A program made the translations under genes and the position numbers. A DNA stretch of 64,000 nucleotides from Actinomycetota bacterium (GTDB lineage Bacteria > Actinomycetota > Geothermincolia > Fen-727 > Anoxymicrobiaceae), in assembly GCA_043807425.1 (NCBI GenBank), contig JAZDFZ010000025.1, positions 1,827 through 65,826 of the forward strand, given 5' to 3'. Position 1 is the first letter of the stretch; each line of letters starts with the position of its first letter. The notes under the pieces were generated by a model. It saw only the letters and a list, made by a program, of their open reading frames with translations, made no database searches and was not told the DNA's origin. Below, piece after piece: positions 15,850 through 30,296 of the stretch.

Positions 15850-16956
15850 TCACTCGACGAGGATTATCCTGGCGTCGTCCGTTATCTCCACCAGCGTGTT
15901 GCTGGTCTCGGGGACACCGCGGTCGTCCAGCCAGCAGCCCGAGTTGACCGCAAGCGTCCCGGAGAGGGGCAGTCGCAGCATCCCGGCCCGGTGGGTGTGC
16001 CCGTAGACGAAGTAGGCCGGCATCTCCTCGCAGAAGTGCTTGAGCAGGGCCTCTATCTCGACCGCGTTCTCCTCGATAGTGGAGCCCCGGTAGTTGGAGG
16101 TGCGGTCGTCGGGCGAGACCCCCCAGTACTTGCCGGTGTTGTTCAACCAGCGGTAGATGCGGTAGCGGTTCTCCACGACCCCGGGTATATAGGTGCTGAG
16201 CATCGCCATCTCGTAGTACGGAGAGATAAAGCGTTCCATGTCGTCCAGGTCGAGACTGCCGGTTCTGTTGAGTATGAAGGTACTGATGCGGGAGTGCTTC
16301 GGCTTCCACAGGGACCGCTCGAACATGCCCAGCAGGTGCCCGTGGGTTAGCAGCGCCGGCCTGCCGCGTACAAGGACCTGGTAAATGGGGTAGGTCATGA
16401 ATAGCGGCACCTGGGCGTCCCTGGGGATGAGTGGCGCGATCGCCGGGCAGTCGCGGGTCATGGGCATGACCAGCTCGGGCATCTCCAGGCTGCCTTCACG
16501 GAGGTTTCGCGCGACCTTCTCCTCGAAATACATGCGGAAGATGTGGTGATCGTGGTTTCCGGGCAGGTACACCATCCTCCGGACGTTCGGCAGCGTGAAC
16601 AGCGCGTCCAGGAGCGGCCCTCCCCTCTTCAGCGCCTCGTCGAACCTCGCGTTCCAGAAGTCGAACAGATCGCCCAGGATGACAAGGTCGTCGATGGGGC
16701 CCAGCTCGGTTATCGCTTCCACCAGCGGCTGGACGCGCTCGGGCTGGGCCAGAAGGTCGTGTGGCTCGCCGAGGTGTACGTCGCTGATGATCACGACGCG
16801 GTCGGCGACCGCCCCGGGCTCCGGCGGCTTGAGGAATGCGCGCGCGCCGGGGATGCGTGAGGCGATAAGCTCTCCGCGGCGCCTCGCCTTCTGAGCGACG
16901 CGCCTGGACGCCTCCACTGCCTTGTACTCCGATATCTTCTTGCGGTTATCGGCCAT
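15850..16956 (-). CDS. metallophosphoesterase (calcineurin-like)
   Basis: SDVHLGEP, ILGDLFDFWN, LPGNHDHH, LTHGHLL, YGHTHRAG. ATG 16956 preferred over the ORF-track TTG at 16974. Confidence 0.85.
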   Translation of the reverse strand: MADNRKKISEYKAVEASRRVAQKARRRGELIASRIPGARAFLKPPEPGAVADRVVIISDVHLGEPHDLLAQPERVQPLVEAITELGPIDDLVILGDLFDFWNARFDEALKRGGPLLDALFTLPNVRRMVYLPGNHDHHIFRMYFEEKVARNLREGSLEMPELVMPMTRDCPAIAPLIPRDAQVPLFMTYPIYQVLVRGRPALLTHGHLLGMFERSLWKPKHSRISTFILNRTGSLDLDDMERFISPYYEMAMLSTYIPGVVENRYRIYRWLNNTGKYWGVSPDDRTSNYRGSTIEENAVEIEALLKHFCEEMPAYFVYGHTHRAGMLRLPLSGTLAVNSGCWLDDRGVPETSNTLVEITDDARIILVE

Positions 16957-16983
16957 GTTCGTCCCTAATCGCAATGACTTGAG

Positions 16984-17107: not shown

Positions 17108-17845
17108 CTAGAGTATCGCGGCCAGGGCCGCGTTTATAGCACCTGAAGCAGGGCAGTCGGGCAGATCGAGGAACGAGAGCTCCTCCTCGTCGAAGCGGCG
17201 TATCGTAGGGTCCTCGGGCACCCAGCCGACCACTTCCAGGTCCGTAGCGGCGCGCACCTGCTCGACCTGACCCTCGTCGGTGACACGGTTGACCAGCAGC
17301 CCGAAACGGGCGCCGGGAGCCATGGTGGCACCAACGGCGCTGATGGTCTCCGCCGTTCGGACGGCCTTCATCGAGGTATCAGCGACCAGGAGCACGTAGT
17401 CCACCGAGCCCAGGACCTTGCGGTTCACCTGCTCTATTCCCGCCTCCGCGTCCACAACTGTCTCGTCGAAGCGAACGGCGAGCCCCTTTATGGCGTCCTT
17501 GAGGATAACGTTCACCTTGCAGTAGCAGCCGGCGTCCTCGGGGCGCCCGATCGAGAGCAGCGCCAGGTTGCCGCGCTCGGTGAGGGCCTCGGCCAGGAGG
17601 TAGTCGATGGAGACGGCCAGGTCGCGCTCGTCCCGGGCCCCCTCCTTGACCTCGTGGATGAGCTCCTTGCGCACATCGTTGAGAGTCCTGCCTGGCTTCA
17701 TGCCCAGGGCCATGGCAAGCCCGCCGGCGGGGTCGGCATCGACTATGAGAGAACGGCGCGAGCCGTCACGCGCCAGCGCCCGTGCGGCCACGGCCGCGAT
17801 CGTGGTTTTGCCGACGCCTCCCTTGCCCGAAACCGCCAGTATCAT
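17108..17845 (-). CDS. CooC/AcsF-type P-loop ATPase (metal-centre maturation family)
   Basis: MILAVSGKGGVGKTT (deviant Walker A), DADPAGGL, and the CooC-type Cys-x-Cys motif GCYCKVN. ATG overlaps the upstream stop (ATGA). Confidence 0.8.
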   Translation of the reverse strand: MILAVSGKGGVGKTTIAAVAARALARDGSRRSLIVDADPAGGLAMALGMKPGRTLNDVRKELIHEVKEGARDERDLAVSIDYLLAEALTERGNLALLSIGRPEDAGCYCKVNVILKDAIKGLAVRFDETVVDAEAGIEQVNRKVLGSVDYVLLVADTSMKAVRTAETISAVGATMAPGARFGLLVNRVTDEGQVEQVRAATDLEVVGWVPEDPTIRRFDEEELSFLDLPDCPASGAINAALAAIL

Positions 17846-18594
17846 TCTTCACCCCCACCCCGACCCTCCCCCCTCGAGGGGGAGGGAGGAATCGTACCTG
17901 CGAGACGGTCGCGTATCTTCTTCAGGTCCATCACCGAGTCGCAGACCTCCTTGTACTCGCAGGTCTCGCAGTCGAAGTTGGCCTCCTGGTACATCTTCAT
18001 CATCGCCTCGATGACCCTCTGCGCTCCCCGGGCAGGCTCGGCGAGCCGCTCCACGTCATCACGTCCCGAGGTGACGAAGAGGACCTCGGCGCACGACACC
18101 GGCTCCACGGTCTTGAGCTCCTCGATCAGCGCGGCCCCGAGGTCCGCGAGCGAGAAACCCCCGTCACGCGCCTCGGTGCTGACCCTGCACCATACGGTCT
18201 GGCGGGACGGCAGGGTGCGCACGGAGAAACCGTCCAGGTGGGTATCGTACACCGCGTCCCTGATGTCGCGGAAGGAGTCGTACTCGTTGTCGAACTCGCC
18301 CCCCACCAGGACGACCTGCCCGAAAGGTATGCTGCCCCCGCCGGCCTCAGCGACGTCAGGCCCGACCAGGGATACGCGGCCTTCCGAGATCTCGGAGGGC
18401 TCGCCCCAGGCCAGGATGGACAGCGAGGCGCCGCTGGGGTTGCCCAGCTCGAGGCCGGTATCCTCCTGCAGGACCAGGCTGTACGCGCGCGGCCAGGGGA
18501 CCTCCCGGCGCCCCAGCGTGCGCAGCCGACCTTCCCCGCTCAACTCATCAACGAACCCTCGTATCTGCTTTATCTGCTCGTCGAATAGGCCCAT
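17842..18594 (-). CDS. truncated acetyl-CoA synthase (AcsB/CdhC) middle-domain-like protein
   Basis: 250 aa from ATG 18594. SEISEGRVSLVGPDVAEAGGGSIPFGQVVLVGG...SRQTVWCRVSTEARDGGFSL...VLFVTSG...ANFDCETCEYKEVC parallels, from memory, AcsB SEITDGKIEVIGPDIDQIPEGSKLPLGILVDIYG...NINWLRVSKDAVAKGF...VTIFTD...TFYSCVLCQSFAPNHVC. Ends before the Ni-binding Cys-Gly-Cys region. Confidence 0.55.
   Translation of the reverse strand: MGLFDEQIKQIRGFVDELSGEGRLRTLGRREVPWPRAYSLVLQEDTGLELGNPSGASLSILAWGEPSEISEGRVSLVGPDVAEAGGGSIPFGQVVLVGGEFDNEYDSFRDIRDAVYDTHLDGFSVRTLPSRQTVWCRVSTEARDGGFSLADLGAALIEELKTVEPVSCAEVLFVTSGRDDVERLAEPARGAQRVIEAMMKMYQEANFDCETCEYKEVCDSVMDLKKIRDRLAGTIPPSPSRGEGRGGGEE
17850..17893 (-). repeat. 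family-1 hairpin repeat, copy 2
   Basis: CACCCCCACCCCGACCCTCCCCCCTCGAGGGGGAGGGAGGAATCG. Encodes the tail PPSPSRGEGRGGGEE of the upstream gene, and its G-rich end supplies the SD for ATG 17845. Confidence 0.9.
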
Positions 18595-18601
18595 GCAACG
18601 G

Positions 18602-19372
18602 TTAGTCCATTCCCGCGAGGAGGGCGGCGCCGAGCGCCGCGGCCAGCCTCGGGTCGTGGGGGAACTCGTAGCAGGTGCCACCCATCTTGCCCTTGATGCG
18701 GTCGTTCACCGCCGCGATGCTCGCCACGCCCCCGGTCAGGGTGTACCTGTCCCCGTCGGAGAAACGTCGCGCCTGCGCGGCCACTATGCTCGAGACAGCG
18801 TCGCACAGCCCGGCCACTATGTCGGCGGGCTGCTCGCCCGCGTTCACGTGCGTTATGACCTCGCTCTCGGCGAACACCCCGCACTGGCTGCTGATGGGCA
18901 CCGGGCTCTGCGCCCCCGACGCCGCCTCGTCGATACGGTCCAGCTCGATGCCGACAGCGTTGCTCATGACCTCGAGGAACCGCCCTGAGCCCGAGGCGCA
19001 CTTGTCGTTGCGCATGAAGTTGATCACGTCGCCGTCCTCGTCGATGAGGATGGAGGTGATGCTCTGCCCGCCGCAGTCCACCACCATGTTTATCTCCGGC
19101 AGGTAGTAGGCCCCGGCCGCCGCCACGCAGGTCACCACGTCCTCCAGGAAGGTCATGCCGCTCAGGAGCTCGGACCCACTCCCGGTCCCCGCGGTCCGCT
19201 CGATCTGCTCGCGTGACACGCCCGCGTCCGCCAGTGTCGTCTCCACCAGGGCGCCGATCTCTTCTGCCACATTCCCGGTGGTCTCCATGATGCCGCTCGC
19301 CAGCACCACGTCGTCGTCCAGGACCACCACCTTGGAGAGCAGGTTGCCCACGTCTACACCCATAGTCTTCAC
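18602..19372 (-). CDS. BadF/BadG/BcrA/BcrD-type activase ATPase (subunit 2)
   Basis: 256 aa. MGVDVGNLLSKVVV, VVDCGGQSITSILID, RNDKCASGSGRFLEVM. The GTG start overlaps the upstream stop (GTGA). Confidence 0.85.
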   Translation of the reverse strand: MKTMGVDVGNLLSKVVVLDDDVVLASGIMETTGNVAEEIGALVETTLADAGVSREQIERTAGTGSGSELLSGMTFLEDVVTCVAAAGAYYLPEINMVVDCGGQSITSILIDEDGDVINFMRNDKCASGSGRFLEVMSNAVGIELDRIDEAASGAQSPVPISSQCGVFAESEVITHVNAGEQPADIVAGLCDAVSSIVAAQARRFSDGDRYTLTGGVASIAAVNDRIKGKMGGTCYEFPHDPRLAAALGAALLAGMD

Positions 19373-20202
19373 GAGGCATCACCCGTCCTGCGGGCCAGCA
19401 CAGCGGCCCCGTAGGCGCCGATCAGTTGCGGGTCGATGTGGGGCGCGATCATCCTCACGTTCAGCATCTTCTCCAGCTCGGACCTCACCGCCACGTTCTT
19501 GGCGACCCCGCCGGTCATCATGACATCTTTCTCCATCCCCACGCGGCGTACCAGCGCCATGACCCGGTCGGCCATGGACTTGGTGATGCCGCTCGCCAGG
19601 TCCGCCCGGTTGACGCCCTTCTGGATGTAGTGCAGGACCTCGGTCTCCGCGAAGATGCTGCACCGCGACGACAGCTCGATTCGGCTGTGGGCCTCTATTG
19701 CCAGCGGTCCAAGGTCCTCGAAGGAGATGCCCAGCGTCCTGCTCATGACCTCCAGAAAGCGCCCCGTCCCCGCCGCGCACTTGTCGTTCATCACGAAGTT
19801 GACCAGGTCGCCGTTCTCGTCCACCCTTATCACCTTGGCGTCCTGGCCCCCGATGTCGATGATGGTCCTCACCTGCGGCGCCAGGGAGAACGCCCCCACC
19901 CCGTGGCAGGAGATCTCGCTCATGTTCTGCTGGGCCAGGCCCTCGGCCTCCACCCGGTCGCGCCCGTAACCGGTGCTCACACAGTAGGTGATGTCGCCCC
20001 AGCCGAGCTTCCTCTCGTCGAGCAGCTCACCCATCACGGTCCGGGCCGAGTCCAGCGGGTTCGACTTCACCCGGATGCTGCGGGCGTCGAACTTCACCCC
20101 GATCGCCTTGAGCATCGGCGTGTGCCCGTCCTCGATGAGCACCGCCTGCGCGGTCAGCGAGCCGACGTCTATCCCCGCAAAACGCCTCGTGTCACTCATC
20201 AT
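19369..20202 (-). CDS. BadF/BadG/BcrA/BcrD-type activase ATPase (subunit 1)
   Basis: 277 aa. AGIDVGSLTAQAVLI, ISCHGVGA, IIDIGGQDAKVIRV, MNDKCAAGTGRFLEVM. Confidence 0.85.
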   Translation of the reverse strand: MMSDTRRFAGIDVGSLTAQAVLIEDGHTPMLKAIGVKFDARSIRVKSNPLDSARTVMGELLDERKLGWGDITYCVSTGYGRDRVEAEGLAQQNMSEISCHGVGAFSLAPQVRTIIDIGGQDAKVIRVDENGDLVNFVMNDKCAAGTGRFLEVMSRTLGISFEDLGPLAIEAHSRIELSSRCSIFAETEVLHYIQKGVNRADLASGITKSMADRVMALVRRVGMEKDVMMTGGVAKNVAVRSELEKMLNVRMIAPHIDPQLIGAYGAAVLARRTGDAS

Positions 20203-21622
20203 CCGCTCCTCGCCGCGCCCCGCGGCCCTTCACCCTTCTCCTCTTGATAACCACGTTCTTCATGAACTCGTCAATGTCGCCCTGCAACCGGGACATGGGG
20301 GTCATGCCCGACAGCCAGGCGTCGCCCTGCAGGCACAACGTGGGCGCCCCTATGCGGTCCATGAGCTCCTTCTGGACTATGGAGATTACGCTCCAGGTCT
20401 GCTTGCAGGCGTGGTGCCCGCAGTAGATCCCGCAGTTGGCGTTCATCTCGCGGCACATGTGCACCGCGTCGTCTATCCAGGCCACGGACATGGAGTCGGC
20501 CCCCATCTGCCTGGTCATCGGGAACCGCCGCGCCGCCTCGCAGATGCCGTCCAGCATCGTCTCCCTGCTGTCGGTCGGTATGGGGTCCGGGAAGAAGAGA
20601 TCCAGCACGTCGAACAGGTAGGAGTAACCCTGCTCCTCCATCCAGTTGAAGAGCCCGTTGTAATCTATGTAGTAGCCGACGTACAGCCATCCCACGCGCG
20701 CCAGCTCTCTTGGAGCGGGGTACTCCCCCGCCTCGAGCCTGCGCCGGGACTCCTCGACCATCACCTCCATACAGCGGACCGCCTCCGGCCTTCCCCACAT
20801 GGTGAAGCGGCACCCGTAGACGAAAAAGCTGAAAAGGTTGGGCACCGGACAGGGCACGTTCTTCTTCAGCTCCCATAGCTGGTAGTGAAGCTCGGCCGCG
20901 CGGTTGCAGTTCTCCACCACGTCCCGGAGGCGCTCCTCGCTTATTTCCTCGCCGATGTACTCCTCGAGGTTGCTCACCAGCCGGTAGAAGTTCTTACGGA
21001 ACTGCTCGCGGCCGCGCTCGGTGTCGTCGACCGGCTTCTCCAGGATGAACTGGGGTATCCCCAGGTAGTGCGCGACGAACTCGTGGATCTTGGAGTTGGC
21101 GTCGCAGGCCCCCGCCGTCGAGCTCACTATCGCGTCCGCCTCGAAGTCCTGGCCGGTGAGCATGCTCCCCAGCTCGATGGTGCTGCTGCTGCAGAGGTGG
21201 TCGGGTATTCCGAGGCCCATGGCGTAGTCCCAGTAGCGATGGCCCTTGCCCTCGATGGCGCCGGCGCCGAGCGAGGTCAGAACCTCGCTGGTGAGCGGGA
21301 CCGCGTTCTCGAAGGCGTGTATCAGCTCGGGCACGAAGTTGAACGGCACCAGGATGACCTTCCTGCCGGTCTCCCTGGCCTCCCTGGCCTCGGCCATCCA
21401 CTCACCTATCATCTTCAGGTAGGCGATGCTGGCGCGGCGGACCCTCGGGTTGAGGAACCCCTCCAGGGTCTCGGCCACGTCGGGCGGCATCAGGGCGATG
21501 ACGCCCTCGCTCTCCTCGTCGGAGAGGTCGTCCGGGATACTCCGCACCATGTCGAGCATCGCGATGACCCGCTCGAAGAGGCCCTCCCGTGACGTCCTGG
21601 GTGCGCCTGCCAGTATCGTCAT
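20192..21622 (-). CDS. benzoyl-CoA reductase / 2-hydroxyacyl-CoA dehydratase family large subunit (copy B)
   Basis: 476 aa, roughly half identical by eye to the 521-aa neighbour. Shared blocks: GIPQFILEKPVDD, NLFS, LFNWMEEQGYSYL, CKQTWSV. Confidence 0.8.
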   Translation of the reverse strand: MTILAGAPRTSREGLFERVIAMLDMVRSIPDDLSDEESEGVIALMPPDVAETLEGFLNPRVRRASIAYLKMIGEWMAEAREARETGRKVILVPFNFVPELIHAFENAVPLTSEVLTSLGAGAIEGKGHRYWDYAMGLGIPDHLCSSSTIELGSMLTGQDFEADAIVSSTAGACDANSKIHEFVAHYLGIPQFILEKPVDDTERGREQFRKNFYRLVSNLEEYIGEEISEERLRDVVENCNRAAELHYQLWELKKNVPCPVPNLFSFFVYGCRFTMWGRPEAVRCMEVMVEESRRRLEAGEYPAPRELARVGWLYVGYYIDYNGLFNWMEEQGYSYLFDVLDLFFPDPIPTDSRETMLDGICEAARRFPMTRQMGADSMSVAWIDDAVHMCREMNANCGIYCGHHACKQTWSVISIVQKELMDRIGAPTLCLQGDAWLSGMTPMSRLQGDIDEFMKNVVIKRRRVKGRGARRGADDE

Positions 21623-23184
21623 AGCATTGCCCCCTCACCCCGACCCTCTCCCCCCAGGGGAGAGGGGGAATCTGGGCGACCCTCTCCCCCGAGGGGAGAG
21701 GGGGAATCGGAGGTCTTTTCCTCCAGCCGCCTGCGGATCTTTCTCTTGCCGGTCCGCTTCTCGGAGACGACGTTCTTGATGAACTCGTCTATCTGCTCCT
21801 GGATGACACCGATGGGGGTGGTGCGCTTCAGCCACGAGTCCCCCTGCAGGACCAGCATCGGCACGCCCGCCCGCTTCATCAGCTCCTCGCGCATTATGGA
21901 GGCCACGCTCCAGGTCTGCTTGCAGGAGTGGTGCCCGGAGTAGATGGCTACGTTCGCTCCCAGGTCCTTCGCGGAGTACAGCGCGTCCTCCAGCCAGCAC
22001 ATGGACATCGATTCGCCCCCGACCTGGTGGGTCATGGGCATGTTCCAGGCTTCCTCGGCCAGCCCACTCACCATGCTGTCGTAGCTGCTGGTGTCGATGG
22101 TGATGGGGAACAGCAGGTCGAGGCCGTCCCCCAGGTAGGAGTATCCCTGCTCCTCCATCCAGTTGAAGAGCGCCGCCAGGTCGAAGTAGTAGGAGGTATA
22201 GGTCAGCAGGCAGCGGGCGATCTCGCGGTCCGCAGGGTACGCGCCCTCCTTCAGGCGCCTCTTGGAGACGTCCACATAGGCCCTGATGGCGTCGATAGCG
22301 GCGTCCGTCCCCCACATCGAGAAACGCGTCCCGTAGGTGTACAGGCTGAACAGGTTGGGGACCGGGTCGGGCACGTTCTTGTGGAGGTCCCACAGCTCCG
22401 CCAGCAGCTCGTTGCAGACGTTCACTTTCTCGCAGGTGCGCCGCAACTTCTCCTCGGTGAGCTCCTCGTCCAGGAACTCCTCCATCCTGTGGATGAGGCC
22501 CAGGTAGTTCCTCCGGTACTGCTCTTTTCCTCGCTCAGAGTCGTCGACCGGCTTCTCCAGGATGAACTGTGGGATGCCGTGATACAGCGAGATGAGCTCG
22601 TGGGTCTTGGCGTTTATGTCGCAGGAACCGGTCGCGGCGTTGATTATCGCCTGCGGCTGGAAGTCGTCGCTGCCCAGCATCGAGCCGATCTCGATGGCGT
22701 TCGACGAGCAGATGTGGTCCGGCAGGCCGATCCCCAGCGCCATGTCGTAGTAGCGCTCGCCCTGCCCTTCCAGGGCGACGACCGCCAGCGAAGAGAGGAC
22801 CTCGCTTGTTATGGGGAACCCCTTGTCGAAGGCGTGGACCAGTTCGGGCGGAAAGCAGAACGGCACCAGGAACGTCTTCCGGCCCTCGTCAGGCGAGCGC
22901 TTCGCCTCGTCCAGCCAGGTGGAAAGGCACTTCATAAAGGCGAGGCTCCCCTCGCGGGCCCGGGGTATGAGCATCGCGGTCAGGGACTTGCGAGAGTCGC
23001 CCGGGAGCACGCCCATCAGACCCTCGACCTCCTCGTCGCTCATCTCGTCCGGGAGCATGTCGATGACCCGGAACAGGCTCGAGACCCTGTCGAAGAGCCC
23101 TTCCTTGGCGTCACCGGGAAGGCCCGGGGCCGCCCGGCCCTCGGGCTTGAGTATCTCGGTGAGAGTCGCGACGGAGCCGCTCAT
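21619..23184 (-). CDS. benzoyl-CoA reductase / 2-hydroxyacyl-CoA dehydratase family large subunit (copy A) with a repeat-encoded tail
   Basis: ATG 23184 overlaps the upstream stop (ATGA). MSGSVATLTEILKPEG... 521 aa, with the last ~30 aa encoded by the tandem repeat. Its stop overlaps the next ATG (ATGA). Confidence 0.8.
   Translation of the reverse strand: MSGSVATLTEILKPEGRAAPGLPGDAKEGLFDRVSSLFRVIDMLPDEMSDEEVEGLMGVLPGDSRKSLTAMLIPRAREGSLAFMKCLSTWLDEAKRSPDEGRKTFLVPFCFPPELVHAFDKGFPITSEVLSSLAVVALEGQGERYYDMALGIGLPDHICSSNAIEIGSMLGSDDFQPQAIINAATGSCDINAKTHELISLYHGIPQFILEKPVDDSERGKEQYRRNYLGLIHRMEEFLDEELTEEKLRRTCEKVNVCNELLAELWDLHKNVPDPVPNLFSLYTYGTRFSMWGTDAAIDAIRAYVDVSKRRLKEGAYPADREIARCLLTYTSYYFDLAALFNWMEEQGYSYLGDGLDLLFPITIDTSSYDSMVSGLAEEAWNMPMTHQVGGESMSMCWLEDALYSAKDLGANVAIYSGHHSCKQTWSVASIMREELMKRAGVPMLVLQGDSWLKRTTPIGVIQEQIDEFIKNVVSEKRTGKRKIRRRLEEKTSDSPSPLGGEGRPDSPSPLGGEGRGEGAML
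21630..21708 (-). repeat. family-1 hairpin repeat, tandem copies 3a and 3b
   Basis: CCCCTCACCCCGACCCTCTCCCCCCAGGGGAGAGGGGGAATC, then GCGACCCTCTCCCCCGAGGGGAGAGGGGGAATCGG. Translated as SDSPSPLGGEGRPDSPSPLGGEGRGEGAML. Confidence 0.9.
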
Positions 23185-24320
23185 GACCTGTCTCCTATCC
23201 TCTCGAGGAACGCCTGGACCCTGGTCCGGATGCGCCCGATGTCCGCCTTCGAGCCGTACTCCTTCTCGAGCTGGAGGACCGGGATGCCCTCCTTCTCGAG
23301 CGAAAGGCGGAGCTGGACGTTGTCCACCCCGTGGACGTCGCAAAACTTGTTGTGCATGACCATCACGCCGTCGGCGCCGGCGCGCTTCACCTCGTCGATG
23401 ACGAAGTCCCGTCTCCTGGGGAAGTCCTCGTACATGCGCGGGCAGAGCATCTCCTTGAGGTAGAGCTCGGCCAGCGCCTCGATGGGCTCCAGGTCAGTCC
23501 GTATTGGCTTCCAGAACGCGCGGGCCCCGTAGCACAGCGAGTCGGTGACCACCAGGCCGCCCACGTCCTCTATCTCACCGATGAGCTCCAGCTCGTCGGT
23601 GGCGGCGCCGCACAGCATGAGGCGGGCCCGGTAGCCGGTGACCCCGGTGCCCGAGCGCTCCTCTATCACGCGGTCGATCAGAGCGAGGTAATCGTCCGCG
23701 GGCATCGCGGAGGCCAGCAGGAACAGCGAGAGCGCCTCGGTCCCCGTGAACGACGGGGCGTCGCCCTCCCTCATGGCGTACACCTCGCGCAGCTTCGATC
23801 GGACGGCCTCCTGCCGCTCGATGGCCTTCTTAAGCTTCGGCTTGGTGACCTTGGTCCCGAAGCCGGCCTCCAGGGCCCTGGCGAAGAGCCTGAGCTCCTC
23901 CGTGTAGTACTCCATCGCCTCGGGCGTGGTCTGGTGCGGCACCTTCACGTAGTGGAAGAACGCCACCGGCTTGACGTACTGCCAGTTCTCGAACATCCCC
24001 CGCAGGTGGTCGCAGCCGTTGGTCTCGATCAGCCCGTCCAGGAAGTCGAAGGTCCCGTCCAGGCCCAGCTGCAGGCACGAGCGGCAGAAGCTGCAGTTGA
24101 AGCGCGCCAGGTGGGCGTCGGCTATCTCGGTGTTGGGGTTGCCCAGGGCCCGGATGCGGTATGGCAGCAGGCCCGCCGCGTCGATTATCTCCGGAGGGGT
24201 CGTCACGCAGCTGTATCCGACGACCTTGCCGCCGCCTTCCTTCCACCGCTTCACGTACTCGTTCTCGACCGCCTCCGATATCCTGACGGCCTCTTCCAGC
24301 GCGCTGGTGGTAACAGTCAT
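23181..24320 (-). CDS. benzoyl-CoA reductase / 2-hydroxyacyl-CoA dehydratase family small subunit (BzdN/BcrC/HgdB-like)
   Basis: 379 aa. VVGYSCVTTPPEIIDAAGLLPYRI, FCRSCLQ, NGCDHLR, LMLCGAA, HNKFCDVHG. Confidence 0.8.
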   Translation of the reverse strand: MTVTTSALEEAVRISEAVENEYVKRWKEGGGKVVGYSCVTTPPEIIDAAGLLPYRIRALGNPNTEIADAHLARFNCSFCRSCLQLGLDGTFDFLDGLIETNGCDHLRGMFENWQYVKPVAFFHYVKVPHQTTPEAMEYYTEELRLFARALEAGFGTKVTKPKLKKAIERQEAVRSKLREVYAMREGDAPSFTGTEALSLFLLASAMPADDYLALIDRVIEERSGTGVTGYRARLMLCGAATDELELIGEIEDVGGLVVTDSLCYGARAFWKPIRTDLEPIEALAELYLKEMLCPRMYEDFPRRRDFVIDEVKRAGADGVMVMHNKFCDVHGVDNVQLRLSLEKEGIPVLQLEKEYGSKADIGRIRTRVQAFLERIGDRS

Positions 24321-24321
24321 G

Positions 24322-25599
24322 TCAAGCTCCTCCAGTGATCTTTCTACCCACGAATGCGACGAACGCCTTTATCGTCTTCCAGAGGTTGCGCGCGAAGATG
24401 CGCGTCATCGCCTGGACCATCCCGGTGCTGGCGAACGCCGCCTCTATCAACCCGTCGGAGACGTTCCGGACCGCGATCTCCATCTGCCCCGAGTCTATCG
24501 AGGATACGAGGCGGCCGAGGTAGTCACCCACCGCGCCGGGGCGGCCCGCGGCCGACGCGTTGAACGCGGCCAGCGACTCGTTTATGCGGCGCGCCACCTG
24601 CTCGGGCTCACACGCCCGGCGGATACCCGGGTGCGCGAGGGCGGCGGCCTTCCAGTCGGCGCCGACCTCCCTGAGGAGCGTCTCCGCGCTCTCGGTGTCA
24701 ACGGCGGCCAGCCCCTTGACGTAGACCTCGCGGTTGAGGCCGGGGTTGGCGGCCCTGAACTTCAGGTCCCAGGTGACATACAGGTCGATCATGCGGCCTA
24801 TCTCCCCTGCCAGCTCGTGCCTGGCGACCTCACCCAGCTTACCCAGCCTTCCCTCGTCCAGCATGGTGAAGTCGGAGAGCATATTGCTCATGGTGCGGGC
24901 GAAGATGTTCATCATCTCGACGCTGCCCCGTGTGAGCTGCACCAGGACCTCGTCGTCCCGTATTGCCAGCTCGGTCAGGACGCCCGCTATGACCTCCAGG
25001 TCCTCGGCCAGGGCGATGGAGGCGTCAGTAGTCGCCTTCACGTCCAGGTTTTCCATCACCCTGTTCATGAAGTCGTTGAACACGGCGCGCGACTTCGGCT
25101 CGTCGCGGCCCAGTATCAGGTTGCCGGCGTGGAGGTCGTTGATCTGCCCGGCGGTCATGGTCAGTATCTTCCCGATCGATTCGGCGTCCAGAGCGCTGAT
25201 GGTATTGAAGAGCGCGGAGGCCAGTATCTCCGGCGGCAGCGCCATCTGGTCGAGCGCGTCGGCCAGTACCGCCAGCAGGCCGTTGACCAGGGGCGGGATG
25301 GTTCCGAGGAGGTTGGCCATGATGACCGGGTTGGTCAGCGCTATCCCCGAGGCGTGCTTGAGCAGCTCCGCCCAGGCCCCGATGAGCTCGCTTGCCGCGA
25401 CACGGACCTTGCCGAAGTCGATGTCCGTCAGGGCGTCGTCCAGCGCCGGGAACATCTGCTTCGCGACGTCGGGGTTCTCCTTGAACGACTCCATGACCGC
25501 CAGCGAGTAGCTGTTGACGGCCTCGGCAAGCGCCTTGCCGTCAAGGCCGGCGGCCCAGGGCTCGAGCATCGGTCGCTTTTCTTCTCCACTTGCCGCCAA
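24322..25599 (-). CDS. all-helical protein of unknown family (long paralog, 425 aa)
   Basis: TTG 25599 with AAGGGGTGAT SD inside the end of the upstream gene. No Cys/His motifs and no clear TM helix. Shares a ~45-aa module with the two upstream genes: PPLVNGLLAVLADALDQMALPPEILASALFNTISALDAESIG. Confidence 0.7.
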   Translation of the reverse strand: MAASGEEKRPMLEPWAAGLDGKALAEAVNSYSLAVMESFKENPDVAKQMFPALDDALTDIDFGKVRVAASELIGAWAELLKHASGIALTNPVIMANLLGTIPPLVNGLLAVLADALDQMALPPEILASALFNTISALDAESIGKILTMTAGQINDLHAGNLILGRDEPKSRAVFNDFMNRVMENLDVKATTDASIALAEDLEVIAGVLTELAIRDDEVLVQLTRGSVEMMNIFARTMSNMLSDFTMLDEGRLGKLGEVARHELAGEIGRMIDLYVTWDLKFRAANPGLNREVYVKGLAAVDTESAETLLREVGADWKAAALAHPGIRRACEPEQVARRINESLAAFNASAAGRPGAVGDYLGRLVSSIDSGQMEIAVRNVSDGLIEAAFASTGMVQAMTRIFARNLWKTIKAFVAFVGRKITGGA

Positions 25600-25605
25600 C
25601 TGGCA

Positions 25606-26208
25606 TCACCCCTTGTTGATCATCTCCGACAGCCTGCGTACCAGCCGTCCGGTCAGGGAAAATACGGTAAGCGCGAGGGAGCGCGCCACGGCCGTCCCGG
25701 CCCGCAGCAGCTCCAGGCCGTCCACCTGCTCGGCCACGTCGCGCAGGAAGTATGGATCGGAGGTGGCGGCGCGGTTCACCCACCGTGCCCCCGTGTTGAT
25801 GAGCCGTGCCAGCGCGCCCGCCGCCGAGTCGCGGGCACCCACCTTCTCCAGGAGCGGGCCGTAGACACGGGGCAACTCGGCGACCTTCTCCATGTCTATC
25901 CGCTCGGCCACCTGCCCGCCGAAGGCCGCTATAAGGTGCGGGGGAAGCCCGTCGAAGACCCGACCCGCCTCGAGGGCCGCCTCCAGCAGGTAGTTGATTA
26001 CTTCCGGTAGGGTCCCCGAGAGGCTGAGCGAGAGGTTTACGTCCTCGAGGAGGGCCGTCCGCACCAGCTCCCGCGCGGCTTCGGGATCAAGCCCCGTAGT
26101 GTTCGTCTTTATGATCTCCAGGAACGCGGGCGTGCGGATGACCTCGCGCAGCACCCGTGCCCCGGATCCCGCCCGGGGGACGGCCTTCGGCTCGCGCGTC
26201 TCCTCCAT
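25606..26208 (-). CDS. all-helical protein of unknown family (short paralog 2, ~200 aa)
   Basis: ATG 26208 overlaps the upstream TGA by 1 nt. MEETREPKAV...RTPAFLEIIK...LDPEAARELVRTALLEDVNLSLSLSGTLPEVINYLLEA...GLPPHLIAAFGGQVAERIDMEKV. Confidence 0.7.
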   Translation of the reverse strand: MEETREPKAVPRAGSGARVLREVIRTPAFLEIIKTNTTGLDPEAARELVRTALLEDVNLSLSLSGTLPEVINYLLEAALEAGRVFDGLPPHLIAAFGGQVAERIDMEKVAELPRVYGPLLEKVGARDSAAGALARLINTGARWVNRAATSDPYFLRDVAEQVDGLELLRAGTAVARSLALTVFSLTGRLVRRLSEMINKG

Positions 26209-26819
26209 CACAGCACCTCCTCGCCTTCACCACCCGCTCCGGCGATGTCCAGCGCCTCCCTGCACGCCCTGGCCAGCGGGCCGACTACGCTCTTCATGAA
26301 CTCCGGGTTCTCCGCGGCGAAGGAGGTTATGCCGCCCGCCAGCCCCCGGGCCAGGTCGGCGACGTTCATCCCTTCGACCGAGGAAAGCCCGCCGGCGAAT
26401 CGTCCCACGAAGGCGCTGGCCGCGTCGGCCAGTGAATCCCCCGCCGCTGCACCGGTCTTTGTGGCAAGGACGGCGATACCGCCCAGGGTCGACCCCAGCC
26501 GTTCGGCGTCCAGGCCGGCCAGCGCCTGTGCGGCGAACTGCCCGAGCAGCGCGGGAGGGAACCCCGCCAGCTGCCGAACCAGCTCGTCGATGGCCACGAT
26601 GCCCGCGTTGAGAAGGTCGGGCGCGGCCGCCATCAGGCCCAGGGAGAACTCCGGATCGGTCCAGAGCAGGGTCCTGACCAGCATCGCCGCGTTCTCAGGG
26701 TCGAGCTCGCCCAGCAGTATCCTCACCGTCTGCTTGAACTTCGGGGTGCGAAGCAGCTCGGCCAGGATCCTGCTGGTCCCTTCGATCGGCCCGTTTCGTG
26801 GAGCTGTCTCTTCGATCAT
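26208..26819 (-). CDS. all-helical protein of unknown family (short paralog 1, 203 aa)
   Basis: ATG 26819. MIEETAPRNG...RTPKFKQTVR...LDPENAAMLVRTLLWTDPEFSLGLMAAAPDLLNAGIVAI...GFPPALLGQFAAQALAGLDAERLG. The upstream part of ORF 26208-27122 is repeat-derived, not coding. Confidence 0.7.
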   Translation of the reverse strand: MIEETAPRNGPIEGTSRILAELLRTPKFKQTVRILLGELDPENAAMLVRTLLWTDPEFSLGLMAAAPDLLNAGIVAIDELVRQLAGFPPALLGQFAAQALAGLDAERLGSTLGGIAVLATKTGAAAGDSLADAASAFVGRFAGGLSSVEGMNVADLARGLAGGITSFAAENPEFMKSVVGPLARACREALDIAGAGGEGEEVL

Positions 26820-26830
26820 GGCCTCACCTT

Positions 26831-26918
26831 TCACCCTGCCCTCTCCCCCGGTGGAGGGGGACAAACAGCGACGGTCACCCCCACCCCGACCCTCCCCCCT
26901 CGAGGGGGAGGGAGTCAG
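26831..26918 (-). repeat. family-1 hairpin repeat, copies 4a (degenerate) and 4b
   Basis: TCACCCTGCCCTCTCCCCCGGTGGAGGGGGACAAAC, then TCACCCCCACCCCGACCCTCCCCCCTCGAGGGGGAGGGAGTCAG. Copy 4b ends exactly at the ACAD stop codon (26915-26917). Confidence 0.85.
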
Positions 26919-28183
26919 AGTGTCTCGCACTCGTAGAACCAGCGGGCGACCTCCATCTGGCCCAGTTGCTTGCCGCCCAGCCACAGCTGGACGATCTTCA
27001 GGTCGCGCCAGTGCTTCTCGATGTCTTGCGCGCGGTCGCTGCCGCGTGGCCCCATGATGTCCAATGCCTTGCCCGAGATCTCCACCGCCTTGTCGCAGGC
27101 GAAGCACTTGTAGGCGCGGCACTTGGCCACGATCTCGTCGGACCAGTTGTCCCCGTAGAGGTCAGGCCGGTCGAGCATGCGTGCCGACTGGTACCCGACA
27201 ATGCGGGTTATCTCTATGTCGCGGGCGATGTCGGCGAGCACGCCTGCGACGTCGTCGTTCTCCTTGAGCGGCTTCCCCCTGAACGTGGTCTCCTCGCAGA
27301 ACTCTTTGAGCAGCTCGAAGATGTTCAGCATGGCCCCGCTGGCGAACGCCACTGACAGCACGTTCCCCCAGGAGACCATCTCCTTGAAGTACAGGAAGTC
27401 CAGCCCGGGCCCGTGCGCGCGGTACCACACCGGGACCCTGACGTTGTCGAACCAGATGTCGGAGTTCTTGTCCGCCGCCATCCCCGCCTTCTGGTACGGC
27501 TTCCCCTGGGTCACGCCCGGGAGGTCCGTCGGGCAGAATATGAAGGCGAAGTCGTCGGGGTCGGTCGAGCCCAGCTTCGTGGTGCAGACCACGCCGAACA
27601 GCTTCGCCGCCCCGCCGCTGTTGGTCGGCCAGAGCTTGTGCCCGCTGATGACCCATTCGTCGCCGTCCAGTATGGCGGTGGTCTGGATGGTGCTGCCCTT
27701 GAGGAGGTCTAGGTTCTCTATGTCGCTGCCGCCCTGCGGTTCGGTCATGGCGTTCGCCGCGAAGACGGGCTCCTCTGTCTCGCAGAACATGGGCGCGAAC
27801 TCGGCGCAGAGCCTGCGGTTCACGTGCGGTTCCTTGCATATCATGAGCAGGGGCCAGTGCATCACCGCGAAGGCGACGCCCATGGCCGAGTCCGCCCGGC
27901 TGATCTCCTCACAGACCCTGAAGCCGCCCACCCCGCCGTAGTCGGAGTGCCCCATCCCGAAGCCCCCCATGTCCTCGGGGAAGAAGAAGCGCTGGAACCC
28001 CAGTTCGCCCATCAGGCTCTTGAACGCCGGCTCGATGGTCTCGTGTTCCTCCCAGTCCTCGTCGAAGCCGCGCCTGAGGGGCATGACCTCCCGCTCGGCC
28101 CAGGCGCGGGTAATCTCCCCGAGGTACCCGTCCAGCGGAGAGAGGTACTCCAGTGGCCTGGTGAAATCGTCTATGCTGCGCAT
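26915..28183 (-). CDS. acyl-CoA dehydrogenase family protein (atypical C-terminal active-site region)
   Basis: 422 aa. AMTEPQGGSDI, WVISGHKLWPTN, IEKHWRDLKIVQLWLGGKQLGQMEVAR. The MCAD-type 'YEGT' Glu position reads L-G-G. Confidence 0.8.
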   Translation of the reverse strand: MRSIDDFTRPLEYLSPLDGYLGEITRAWAEREVMPLRRGFDEDWEEHETIEPAFKSLMGELGFQRFFFPEDMGGFGMGHSDYGGVGGFRVCEEISRADSAMGVAFAVMHWPLLMICKEPHVNRRLCAEFAPMFCETEEPVFAANAMTEPQGGSDIENLDLLKGSTIQTTAILDGDEWVISGHKLWPTNSGGAAKLFGVVCTTKLGSTDPDDFAFIFCPTDLPGVTQGKPYQKAGMAADKNSDIWFDNVRVPVWYRAHGPGLDFLYFKEMVSWGNVLSVAFASGAMLNIFELLKEFCEETTFRGKPLKENDDVAGVLADIARDIEITRIVGYQSARMLDRPDLYGDNWSDEIVAKCRAYKCFACDKAVEISGKALDIMGPRGSDRAQDIEKHWRDLKIVQLWLGGKQLGQMEVARWFYECETL

Positions 28184-28359: not shown

Positions 28360-29601
28360 CTACAGTGCCTTCAGCCCGTAGTAGTGCCGCGCCATGTTAA
28401 CGCTCGCGCAGGTCTCCGGGACCACGTACGTCTCGATGGTCTTCACGTCTCGCCAGTAACGCTCTAGGTTCCACTCCGTCGCGTACCCGGCGGACGCCAT
28501 GAGCTCCATCGCGTTATCGATCCCCTGCATCGCTCCCCGCGAAGCCTGCTTGAAGACCGACGTCGCGGTGGCGAAGATGGGTGGTGAGCCCGCCGGGCCG
28601 TAGAGGTCGGGGCGCGCGAGCATCCGCGCCAGGCTGTAGACCAGAATCCGGATGGCCCCGCACCGGCCGGCGATCTCACCCATCAGGGCGGCGGTGAGCG
28701 GGTTCTCCTTGAACACCTGACCTTTGCCCTTGATCACCCGGGTGTCGCCCCACTCCTTGAGTATCTCGTAGGACGCCAGGAGCGATCCGGCGCACACGGC
28801 CGCGCACGCCATGTAGTACCAGGACAGCAGGCCCAGTGTCCTCTCCTCTCCCTGGAACACCAGCGTTCCGCTCGCGCCGTCGAGGTCGAGGTCGGCGTTG
28901 ATGCTGGGGGCCAGGCCGGTCTTCAGGAACGGCTCGGAGGCCTTCAGCTCCTTCGACGCCGCCGGAACGATCACCAGTGCGGGCGCGCCGTCCAGCCCGC
29001 AGACGACCCCGAACAGGGTGCCGTTGGCTCCGCAGCATTGGGGCCGGACCGAGGTGCCGCTCACGGCGACCAGGGTTCCGGGCTTCATCGAATTGTCTTT
29101 GGCCGTGTTACGTACGGTTGCCGGGTACTCCATGCCGAGGAAGGCCCCCTGGTCCTTCCCGGACCCGTACCCGGGGAGAACGAGCCCGGCGAGGTTGAGC
29201 CCATCCGAGCAGAACAGCGGCGCGATCTCCTCCAGTACGGCGGCTTCGACGTTCGGCTCTATCGCGAACGATGACTGCAGCGCCAGCGTGTTGGCGCAGA
29301 CGAAGCCTATGCCGGTATCGGCGTAGCCGGCCAGCTCCAGGCAGACCGCGGCCGTCACCGCCGCGTCGGGGGTGGACATCCCGCCGCCACCGGACCCGTC
29401 CGGCATCAGCATCGACCCCAGCCCGAGGTCCACCATCAGCTTGCGCATCGCGGGCTCGAGCAGGGCGTCGTAATCCTCCCGGTGCTCCAGCCGCCCGGCC
29501 TTGACCTCCGCCTCCGCCCACTGCGAGACGGTCTGGGCCATCTGCTCGTCGGTCTCCTGCACCCACTCGACGGGAACAGGGAACAGTTCCTGGTACTTCA
29601 T
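28360..29601 (-). CDS. degenerate acyl-CoA dehydrogenase-like protein
   Basis: 413 aa with ACAD-like length and C-terminus (LERYWRDVKTIETYVVPETCASVN). The nucleotide/substrate motif is degenerate (LVLPGYGSGKD instead of TEPxxGSD). GGGGTGAT SD. Confidence 0.6.
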   Translation of the reverse strand: MKYQELFPVPVEWVQETDEQMAQTVSQWAEAEVKAGRLEHREDYDALLEPAMRKLMVDLGLGSMLMPDGSGGGGMSTPDAAVTAAVCLELAGYADTGIGFVCANTLALQSSFAIEPNVEAAVLEEIAPLFCSDGLNLAGLVLPGYGSGKDQGAFLGMEYPATVRNTAKDNSMKPGTLVAVSGTSVRPQCCGANGTLFGVVCGLDGAPALVIVPAASKELKASEPFLKTGLAPSINADLDLDGASGTLVFQGEERTLGLLSWYYMACAAVCAGSLLASYEILKEWGDTRVIKGKGQVFKENPLTAALMGEIAGRCGAIRILVYSLARMLARPDLYGPAGSPPIFATATSVFKQASRGAMQGIDNAMELMASAGYATEWNLERYWRDVKTIETYVVPETCASVNMARHYYGLKAL

Positions 29602-29672: not shown

Positions 29673-30296
29673 CTACCCCCTCACCAGCAGGCCGTTCAAC
29701 TGCAGGTCCACGAACCCGGCGGACACTCCCTCGATGTCGTTCTTCCAAAGCCCCGCGCTCAGGTTGCGCCCCAGGTGTATGAGGCCTCCGACCACGAACT
29801 CGGCGGCCCGTCGCGCGCTCAGGTCGCGCACGATCCCTATGCCCTCACCGAACACGATAAGCCTCTCGAACTGGTCCGTCACTCGCTCCTGGAAGTCTAT
29901 AAACAGCGCGGTCATCTCGTCGTCCACGCCGACAAGCTCGTGCAGGAAGACCTTGGTCATGCTGCGGTTCTTCGCTATGTAGTGAAAGACGTCGGTCATG
30001 ATGGCTGCAAGGCGACGCTCCAGCTCCGCCTCGTCGGGCGGCGGCAGGTCCGGCGCGGTGAATCGCGCGATGGCGTCATCTATGCCGGGCGCGAGTATGG
30101 CGAGGATGTCCTCCATTATTCCGCTCACAGCGGCGGTGAAGACGTCGCGCTTGCTGGAGAAGTAGGAGTAGAAGGTGGACCGGGCGGCCCCGGCCTCGCC
30201 GAGGATGTCCTCGACCGTCGCCTTGTGATAACCGACCTTCGCGAATACCTTCGCTCCGGCATTCACAATCTGGTCGCGCTTGCCGTTCGAGCCCAT
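29673..30296 (-). CDS. TetR/AcrR family transcriptional regulator
   Basis: 207 aa. N-terminal HTH: IVNAGAKVFAKVGYHKATVEDILGEAGAARSTFYSYFSSKRD. Confidence 0.9.
   Translation of the reverse strand: MGSNGKRDQIVNAGAKVFAKVGYHKATVEDILGEAGAARSTFYSYFSSKRDVFTAAVSGIMEDILAILAPGIDDAIARFTAPDLPPPDEAELERRLAAIMTDVFHYIAKNRSMTKVFLHELVGVDDEMTALFIDFQERVTDQFERLIVFGEGIGIVRDLSARRAAEFVVGGLIHLGRNLSAGLWKNDIEGVSAGFVDLQLNGLLVRG

Follow-up and report, generated by a model that had tools for sequence, protein, structure and literature searches.

The 64,000-nucleotide stretch analyzed here (contig JAZDFZ010000025.1 of assembly GCA_043807425.1, from an Actinomycetota bacterium of the Anoxymicrobiaceae; hereafter the window, whose positions are used throughout) encodes on its minus strand three adjacent helical proteins that we call S1, S2, and L. 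They lie between two acyl-CoA dehydrogenase (ACAD) genes and the subunit genes of an enzyme related to benzoyl-CoA reductases (BCR) and 2-hydroxyacyl-CoA dehydratases (HAD). Our analysis confirmed that S1, S2, and L belong to a genuine, unannotated protein family without detectable structural relative (the S/L family), which in genomes is obligately associated with an uncharacterised enzyme, a variant within a known superfamily. As for their role, our preferred reading, which we hold tentatively, is that the three proteins may be adaptors, made of helical repeats and devoid of cofactors, within a new complex of a flavoenzyme with a BCR/HAD-type enzyme, a complex that would probably be tethered to the membrane.

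A protein family without recognizable relatives

S1 (26208-26819, minus strand; 203 amino acids (aa), ATG start) is a helical protein with an acidic C-terminus; it is followed by its paralog S2 (25606-26208, minus strand; 200 aa, ATG start) and by the helical-repeat protein L (24322-25569, minus strand; 415 aa, or 425 aa if a TTG at 25599 is used). A first-pass annotation of the window, made by inspection of the letters and their open reading frames (ORFs), had placed the three ORFs at the correct coordinates and on the correct strand. An NCBI protein of 415 aa (P0001, “hypothetical protein V1748_02855”) shows 100% identity with L; we place its start at the ATG at 25569. A near-identical ortholog of S1 (P0059, 94% identity) also measures 203 aa. 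The G+C content at third codon positions (GC3) is 0.84-0.89 in S1, S2, and L and 0.93 in the flanking enzyme genes, in a window of 65% G+C. By contrast, it falls to 0.71 in a long antisense ORF (23971-26010, plus strand) and to 0.52 where the S1 ORF extends further upstream, both of which we rejected as coding on these values; therefore, the genuine frames are those of the minus strand, with the start of S1 at the ATG at 26819.

The stop of S1 and the start of S2 overlap (TGATG) and are preceded by the ribosome-binding site GAGGAGG, and the ATG of HGD1, the gene downstream of L, stands one base from the L stop with GGAGGAG ahead of it. The gap between S2 and L is 3-35 nt, set by the choice of the L start, and a spacer of 95 nt separates S1 from ACADa, the acyl-CoA dehydrogenase gene directly upstream. 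The idea that starts and stops overlap or abut those of neighbouring genes is consequently accurate for three of the four junctions and does not apply to that between ACADa and S1. Since S1 overlaps S2 and L abuts HGD1, translational coupling is likely from S1 to S2 and from L to HGD1, which agrees with the co-expression that had been predicted; stoichiometric expression of the three proteins with the enzymes, which we would infer from translational coupling only, may be expected.

None of the three proteins could be assigned to a known family. Scans of S1, S2, and L against Pfam-A and NCBIfam retrieved zero families at E ≤ 0.01, Pfam scans of 55 aligned family members and 10 distant relatives produced no match consistent across members, and phmmer and profile hmmsearch comparisons of S/L with the PDB returned noise only (best E 0.011, a haemoglobin). 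All these sequence and profile searches being empty, we rejected a known-family assignment. The AlphaFold2 models of L (predicted local distance difference test score, pLDDT, 79.4; predicted template modelling score, pTM, 0.58) and of a natural S-L fusion, P0042 (pLDDT 85.1, pTM 0.67), are all-helical, with 20 and 25 helices, respectively, and such confident helical models speak for a defined fold and against disorder. Foldseek comparison of the L model with the PDB gave a best E of 7 and that of the fusion model zero matches, and comparison with BFVD gave a best E of 3.8, although Foldseek is weak on long all-helical repeats and a null fold search is here absence of evidence only. A fold assignment was thus likewise discarded, as nothing was found in the PDB or BFVD with the two models, and the view of S1, S2, and L as members of an unrecognised family stands. 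A full-text literature search found no paper describing S/L proteins or their cluster.

Their composition is also as first described, without Cys/His clusters, nucleotide-binding motifs, or transmembrane segments: each protein contains 0-1 Cys and 0-4 His, no domain was identified, and no stretch of transmembrane-grade hydrophobicity is present in S1, S2, or L (maximum Kyte-Doolittle mean over 19 residues, 1.59). L is acidic overall, with a pI of 4.8.

Word-indexed searches, with 48 L and 41 S clusters, gave the impression of a rare family, which was overturned by an exhaustive profile search. The latter detected 414 S/L clusters (clustered at 50% identity) at E ≤ 1e-3, with 309 at ≤ 1e-10 and 145 at ≤ 1e-30. 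The members that we met all come from metagenome-assembled genomes (MAGs) or metagenome contigs, with no cultured host among them. Those from Actinomycetota MAGs belong to Geothermincolia, to Anoxymicrobiaceae, and to records labelled Acidimicrobiales or Acidimicrobium, and others carry the labels of a Syntrophomonadaceae MAG, a Pseudomonadota MAG, and a Spirochaetota MAG. According to the record titles, the contigs derive from settings such as peat fen, marine sediment, and mine water.

One repeat unit builds S1, S2, and L

The three genes had been described as tandem paralogs sharing one module, a claim borne out by pairwise and profile comparisons. In BLASTP, S1 and S2 share 34% identity across 125 N-terminal residues (E 2e-16), the conserved module of S1 covering its residues 1-125 (26445-26819, minus strand). 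The module initially noticed aligns in BLAST between L and S1 (E 7e-5), and between L and S2 it reaches an E of 0.3 only. Comparison of the S profile with L by hhalign, after natural fusion proteins had been taken out of the L alignment, matched S residues 51-125 to L residues 76-154 with 96.2% probability (E 2.4e-9), and a second match of the S profile fell on L residues 205-283. Internal triplication of L, a feature absent from the first-pass annotation, was seen when its profile was aligned with itself by hhalign: an off-diagonal match appears at a shift of ~120 residues (98.1% probability, E 1.2e-13) and a further one at ~243 residues (81.5%), so that L consists of about three tandem copies of an S-type unit. 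These comparisons show that S1, S2, and L are built from one helical unit of ~120 aa, present ~1.5 times in each S protein and ~3 times in L.

The best conserved unit of L, and the module common to S1 and S2, spans residues 76-154 (25108-25344, minus strand). It contains the motifs NPVxxAN, PPLxN, LPPEILASALFN, and LDAE as well as the beginning of HxGNxxLGxxEP. Across the family, the unit can be defined by the succession NPxxxxN / PPxLL / (L/V)DxExL, a definition that includes S1, S2, and L.

S and L modules also occur in a single polypeptide. According to BLAST, 47 of 219 L-family sequences carry an N-terminal S module, and in the alignment many L homologs of 500-645 aa open with a complete S-type module. 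In most of the 47 fusions, the S module scores higher against S2 than against S1. Such fusions provide Rosetta-stone evidence for S2 and L working as one unit. What many genomes encode as one fused polypeptide is split in the window into S2 and L, S1 being an additional paralog beside the S2-L unit.

A conserved cluster with a variable flavoenzyme

We examined linkage in 50 fetched loci, 45 of which include sequence downstream of L, scoring neighbours by tblastn with the window proteins. A gene for the BzdN-like HGD-D subunit HGD1 directly follows L in all 45; the homologs are thus not scattered and their link to these enzymes, presumed at the outset from the window, is upheld. Further downstream, the HGD genes, two BcrAD genes, a CdhC-like gene, and a CooC-like gene keep the same order wherever the contig continues. 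The conserved cluster comprises, in this order, a flavoenzyme (either an ACAD pair or a GMC oxidoreductase), S where a separate gene exists, L, two or three HGD, two BcrAD, the CdhC-like protein, and the CooC-like protein. Its core (flavoenzyme, S1 and S2 where they occur, L, HGD1) is retained in all 50 loci wherever flank exists, GMC variant included.

Variation concerns mostly what lies upstream of L. The arrangement ACADb, ACADa, S1, S2 is found in most loci; some loci have a single S (L009 and L027) and in some S is fused to L (L017, L022, L047, and L049). A divergent subgroup (L020, L021, and L050) has a GMC oxidoreductase where the ACAD pair would stand, lacks separate S genes, and contains HGD in two or three copies. 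This GMC-family FAD oxidoreductase is short (~433 aa; 155-1456 in L020 and 8700-10004 in L050), and its clusters come from a Pseudomonadota MAG and metagenome contigs, with a relative labelled Spirochaetota, the rest of the module being unchanged. As these clusters lack an ACAD, the invariant partner of S/L is the BCR/HAD-type module whereas the flavoenzyme varies, which weakens any view of S/L as an ACAD-specific adaptor. The location of the three genes between the ACADs and the HGD/BCR subunits is therefore correct for the window, but only its HGD/BcrAD side is invariant.

Within the same loci, S/L sequences retain 26-47% identity to the window proteins, against 68-81% for ACADa and 50-78% for HGD1; faster evolution of S/L than of these two enzymes is a pattern usual for structural subunits. 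The position within the operon also differs among the accessory genes, since the CdhC-like and CooC-like genes, which are likely maturation genes, stand at the operon end whereas the S/L genes are found amid those for catalytic subunits.

Basic amphipathic helices at the ends of L and S2

Another feature that the first-pass annotation lacked is the basic amphipathic helix that ends both L and S2. In L, a cationic amphipathic helix occupies residues ~385-411 (RIFARNLWKTIKAFVAFVGRKI; 24337-24417, minus strand), with a hydrophobic moment of 0.65 and a net charge of +4 to +5, and in S2 a basic amphipathic and hydrophobic tail covers residues ~165-200 (25609-25716, minus strand), with values of 0.72 and +3. 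Among 152 L homologs listed at higher scores, which we read as the ACAD-type group (gene context having been checked in a sample only), the last 30 residues have a median charge of +5 to +6, compared with -1.3 to -1.9 per 30 residues in the protein body, and a Trp is conserved. The tails of S2 orthologs carry +3 to +6, whereas the C-termini of S1 orthologs are acidic. Overall, a hydrophobic moment of 0.55-0.72, a net charge of +3 to +6, and a conserved Trp would be the signature of a membrane-targeting amphipathic helix.

An enzyme system distinct from its known relatives

Downstream of L, the HGD and BcrAD genes belong to PF06050 and PF01869, respectively, but they fall far short of all equivalog cut-offs for BCR subunits (BzdN, 174.8 versus 453.8 bits; BzdO, 15.9-27.7 versus 448.6; BzdQ, 195.2 versus 380.2). 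The enzyme that they encode belongs to the BCR/HAD superfamily without being any of its known members. Its closest resemblance is to the Bzd-type class I BCR (BzdNOPQ), as it combines BzdN-like and BzdO-like HGD-D subunits with two different BcrAD/BzdQ-like ATPases, all encoded downstream of L; such a heteromeric pair of ATPases is typical of BCR. It differs by an often present third HGD-D and by the addition of a flavoenzyme, a protein related to the middle domain of acetyl-CoA synthase (ACS), and a CooC-like ATPase. To our knowledge, the solved BzdNOPQ and MbdNOPQ complexes contain those four subunit types only; our PDB sequence and profile searches, which do not themselves give the subunit composition of BCR entries, revealed no S/L-like chain.

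The operons of Had/Fld/Lcd-type 2-hydroxyacyl-CoA dehydratases encode HGD-D proteins, an activator-type ATPase, and an ACAD together. However, those systems have one homodimeric activator, an ACAD accompanied by EtfAB, and no intervening helical proteins, whereas in the present cluster the ATPase genes number two, Etf is missing, the second ACAD is degenerate, and the S/L genes intervene. Finally, PlsA/PlsR and Ger are HAD/BCR-type enzymes that act at the membrane on lipid substrates, and so offer a precedent for a membrane location. They have no S/L-like subunit and their domains are fused differently, and membrane association of the system described here would be deduced from the tails only. 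The nearest item in the literature was PMC13159169, on PlsA/Ger-type HAD/BCR enzymes in ether-lipid synthesis.

ATP-dependent BCR/HAD enzymes carry out some of the hardest reductions and dehydrations of anaerobic metabolism. As far as we know, those characterised so far contain no components other than HGD-D subunits and ATPases. The conserved version described here comes with more, namely a flavoenzyme, a fragment of ACS, an ATPase of CooC-like type, and an unannotated family of helical-repeat proteins. The definition of the S/L family provides a sharp genomic marker for this system and clears three “hypothetical proteins” in many genomes of anaerobes. The architecture to which it points, of flavoenzyme, adaptor, and reductase, is testable and could reveal a new route of electron delivery or a new class of substrate in the carbon turnover of peat, sediment, and subsurface environments.

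Proposed role and alternative explanations

We propose that the system couples two enzymatic parts through S1, S2, and L. Its flavoenzyme would be a heteromeric ACAD pair in the window and a GMC oxidoreductase elsewhere, and its second part an ATP-dependent BCR/HAD-type iron-sulfur module formed by the BzdN-like subunit, one or two BzdO-like HGD, and two different BcrAD ATPases; the ACS-middle-domain-like protein and the CooC-like ATPase would complete it. S1, S2, and L may stack into one extended helical-repeat array, which would dock the flavoenzyme to the reductase or dehydratase at the BzdN-like side. In the ACAD-type systems, the array would also hold the assembly at a membrane or hydrophobic surface by means of its two basic amphipathic tails. 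Several observations lead us to prefer an adaptor function: the position of the genes between those of the flavoenzyme and of the BzdN-like subunit in both cluster variants, translational coupling together with the S2-L fusions, a confidently predicted and defined fold in sequences that are only loosely constrained apart from a few motifs, the scarcity of Cys and the lack of any redox or nucleotide motif, and the paralogy and repeat build of the three proteins.

Some of our data nevertheless sit uneasily with this proposal. Several polar residues of L are strictly conserved (D51, H147, E157, N86, N96, E114, S118, E192, and Y350, of which the first three stand out), and H147, G149, and P158 are retained even in the most distant L subgroup, that of the GMC type. 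So many invariant polar residues exceed the usual need of a passive scaffold and could form a ligand-binding or catalytic site. The C-termini of the lowest-scoring L subgroup listed (P0194-P0235), including the GMC-type P0200, are acidic; with no basic tail on L of the GMC type, tethering to the membrane is ruled out as the core function. A partner protein, rather than a membrane, could also be what the amphipathic tails bind. More generally, gene order and fusion, both read from sequence, argue for association and are silent on what that association does.

A bolder version of the same proposal, which we consider doubtful, is that S1, S2, and L may be the defining subunits of a new type of membrane-associated multi-enzyme machine in which an array of new fold couples a flavin dehydrogenase to the ATP-driven BCR/HAD module. 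Were this the case, oxidation of the substrate would be wired in a new way, with neither ferredoxin nor Etf, to low-potential chemistry driven by ATP, the ACS-derived protein and the CooC-like metallochaperone would be required, the substrate would possibly be hydrophobic, and the machine would operate in anaerobes of several phyla.

Among alternatives to an adaptor role, S/L proteins could cooperate with those of the CdhC-like and CooC-like genes as dedicated chaperones that assemble or mature the unusual HGD metal clusters, in which case the mature enzyme would not contain them. Maturation of a metal center is plausible in a cluster that encodes both a CooC-type ATPase (with CxC) and an ACS-derived protein (with CxxCx5C). 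TorD/NarJ-type maturation proteins are all-helical, cofactor-less, ~200 aa long, and encoded within metalloenzyme operons; the S proteins are analogous in being all-helical, of about the same size, and encoded within a metalloenzyme operon. However, they show no sequence similarity to TorD/NarJ or other chaperone families, and in contrast with TorD/NarJ they are homologous to, and often fused with, the large repeat protein L, an array of 415-600 aa that is itself hard to reconcile with such a role. Moreover, the S/L genes lie between those for catalytic subunits, to which they are translationally coupled, away from the CooC-like gene, and L is linked in gene order to a flavoenzyme that needs no such maturation. 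We therefore regard a chaperone function as unlikely.

The conserved residues of L raise the alternative that it is a ligand-binding subunit, which either holds or delivers a hydrophobic acyl-CoA or lipid or contributes catalytic residues through HxG(N/S)xxLGxxEP. His, Gly, and Pro of this motif are near-invariant through the whole 414-cluster family, and the conserved module has very hydrophobic helices, with a positive grand average of hydropathy. The predicted ACAD pair also recalls the heteromeric α2β2 ACADs of actinobacterial steroid catabolism, which act on bulky steroid-CoA esters. Insignificant matches to apolipoprotein-type Pfam models occur in two members (best E 0.005), with a separate match at E 0.03. 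Against this, neither a known binding domain nor a structural analogue was detected in our searches, the sequence outside the motif diverges quickly, and an interface with the BzdN-like subunit, itself highly conserved, could account for the conserved residues equally well. On balance, we find a ligand-binding L rather improbable, and continue to favor adaptor subunits.

Very distant kinship with the helical-repeat (ARM-like) proteins FliG and MgtE-N, which would make S/L a conformational switch or sensor domain, deserved consideration as these proteins also consist of short-helix repeats with a signature of the type hhxxLDxxxLxxLL. FliG_C (PF01706) was matched in 2 of 55 members in Pfam scans (best E 1.9e-5) and phmmer aligned the family member P0039 with the middle and C-terminal domains of Thermotoga FliG (E 0.011), with a locally striking correspondence of VLRAVNTEQLELVLKGAADDLKQ to VLREVDTRDLALALKGASDELKE. 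However, L, S1, and S2 of the window had zero FliG matches, Foldseek with two confident models found no FliG although FliG chains are in the PDB, and profile searches of the PDB returned none. S/L also differ in their unit length (~120 aa) and conserved motifs, and the pattern in common is a generic helix-turn-helix repeat signature, so that such a relationship seems very improbable. An equally far-fetched explanation, a self-assembling lattice, shell, or cytoskeleton-like scaffold that the MinD/ParA-like ATPase would position to form an enzyme compartment or cluster, can invoke the constant presence of an ATPase of that superfamily in the cluster and the ability of repeat proteins with amphipathic tails to polymerise on membranes, but the CooC-type CxC motif of this ATPase points to metal insertion and not positioning, no similarity to shell or encapsulin proteins exists, and the genes have the dosage of ordinary subunits.

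The gene cluster of the window

All genes of the cluster lie on the minus strand. At its head, a TetR-family regulator (29673-30296) precedes ACADb (28360-29601), a highly divergent partner with an ACAD fold for which domain scans gave no match to the ACAD middle (FAD-contacting) domain, and ACADa (26915-28183), a complete acyl-CoA dehydrogenase. The two look like a heteromeric pair. Beyond L, HGD1 (23181-24320) has as best PDB match BzdN (8s02_B, E 1.7e-55). It is followed by a second HGD-D subunit, HGD2 (21619-23184; 521 aa), whose ATG overlaps the HGD1 stop (ATGA), and by a third, HGD3 (20192-21622). A mechanically called HGD2 ORF of 574 aa (21619-23343, from TTG) was rejected, as it overlaps HGD1 by ~160 nt and HGD2 actually starts at the ATG at 23184; the tblastn matches to this false N-terminal extension in other loci are due to the conserved overlapping HGD1 frame. 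Two different ATPases come next, one BcrAD/BzdQ-like (19369-20202) and one BcrAD-like (18602-19372).

The CdhC-like protein (17842-18594; ~250 aa, its start taken as Met30 of the ORF) is homologous to the middle domain of ACS only (~residues 335-490) and bears a C-terminal CxxCx5C. Since the C-terminal domain, which holds the A-cluster, is missing, we rejected its identification as a Ni-containing ACS. The adjacent MinD/CooC-like (MinD/CbiA-like) P-loop ATPase (17108-17845), with which the CdhC-like protein is always paired, has the deviant Walker A motif GKGGVGKT and a CxC motif (GCYCKVN), a combination that we take to be that of CooC-type metallochaperones. Its best NCBIfam match, below cut-off, was archaeal MinD, and no CooC-specific model was matched in this NCBIfam-type scan. 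For an operon of the BCR/HAD type, the presence of an ACS fragment together with a CooC-like chaperone is unusual, and it suggests that the metal center is not a standard one. A metallophosphoesterase (15850-16974) closes the cluster, as it does in many Actinomycetota-type loci. Among the genes of the cluster, none encodes a ferredoxin, Etf, CoA ligase, or CoA transferase.

A few related loci have additional genes. In L047, a gene for an 867-aa Peptidase_S8 protein (4615-7218) is inserted between the first and second HGD-D genes, the usual place of HGD2. Near the clusters of L002 (1-1648 and 19893-20909) and L006 (1-4639), we found genes for a URO-D-type methyltransferase and for B12-binding, ferredoxin-like, and O-methyltransferase proteins, which look like an O-demethylase set; other loci differ, so that this link is not conserved.

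Lastly, an identical element of ~40 nt with G/C runs (CTCCCTCCCCCTCGAGGGGGGAGGGTCGGGGTGGGGGTGA) occurs twice in the operon on the minus strand, where zero copies are expected by chance. We discarded it as a conserved regulatory hairpin, as none of the 50 related loci contains it, not even that of a sister MAG of ~90% identity, and shuffled sequence folds at least as stably. One copy (26867-26906) is located in the spacer between ACADa and S1 and the other (17849-17888) at the junction of the CdhC-like and CooC-like genes, where its final TGA stands just ahead of the ATPase ATG. Translation of the element yields a spurious “PSPSRGEGRGGG” peptide in two ORF extensions.

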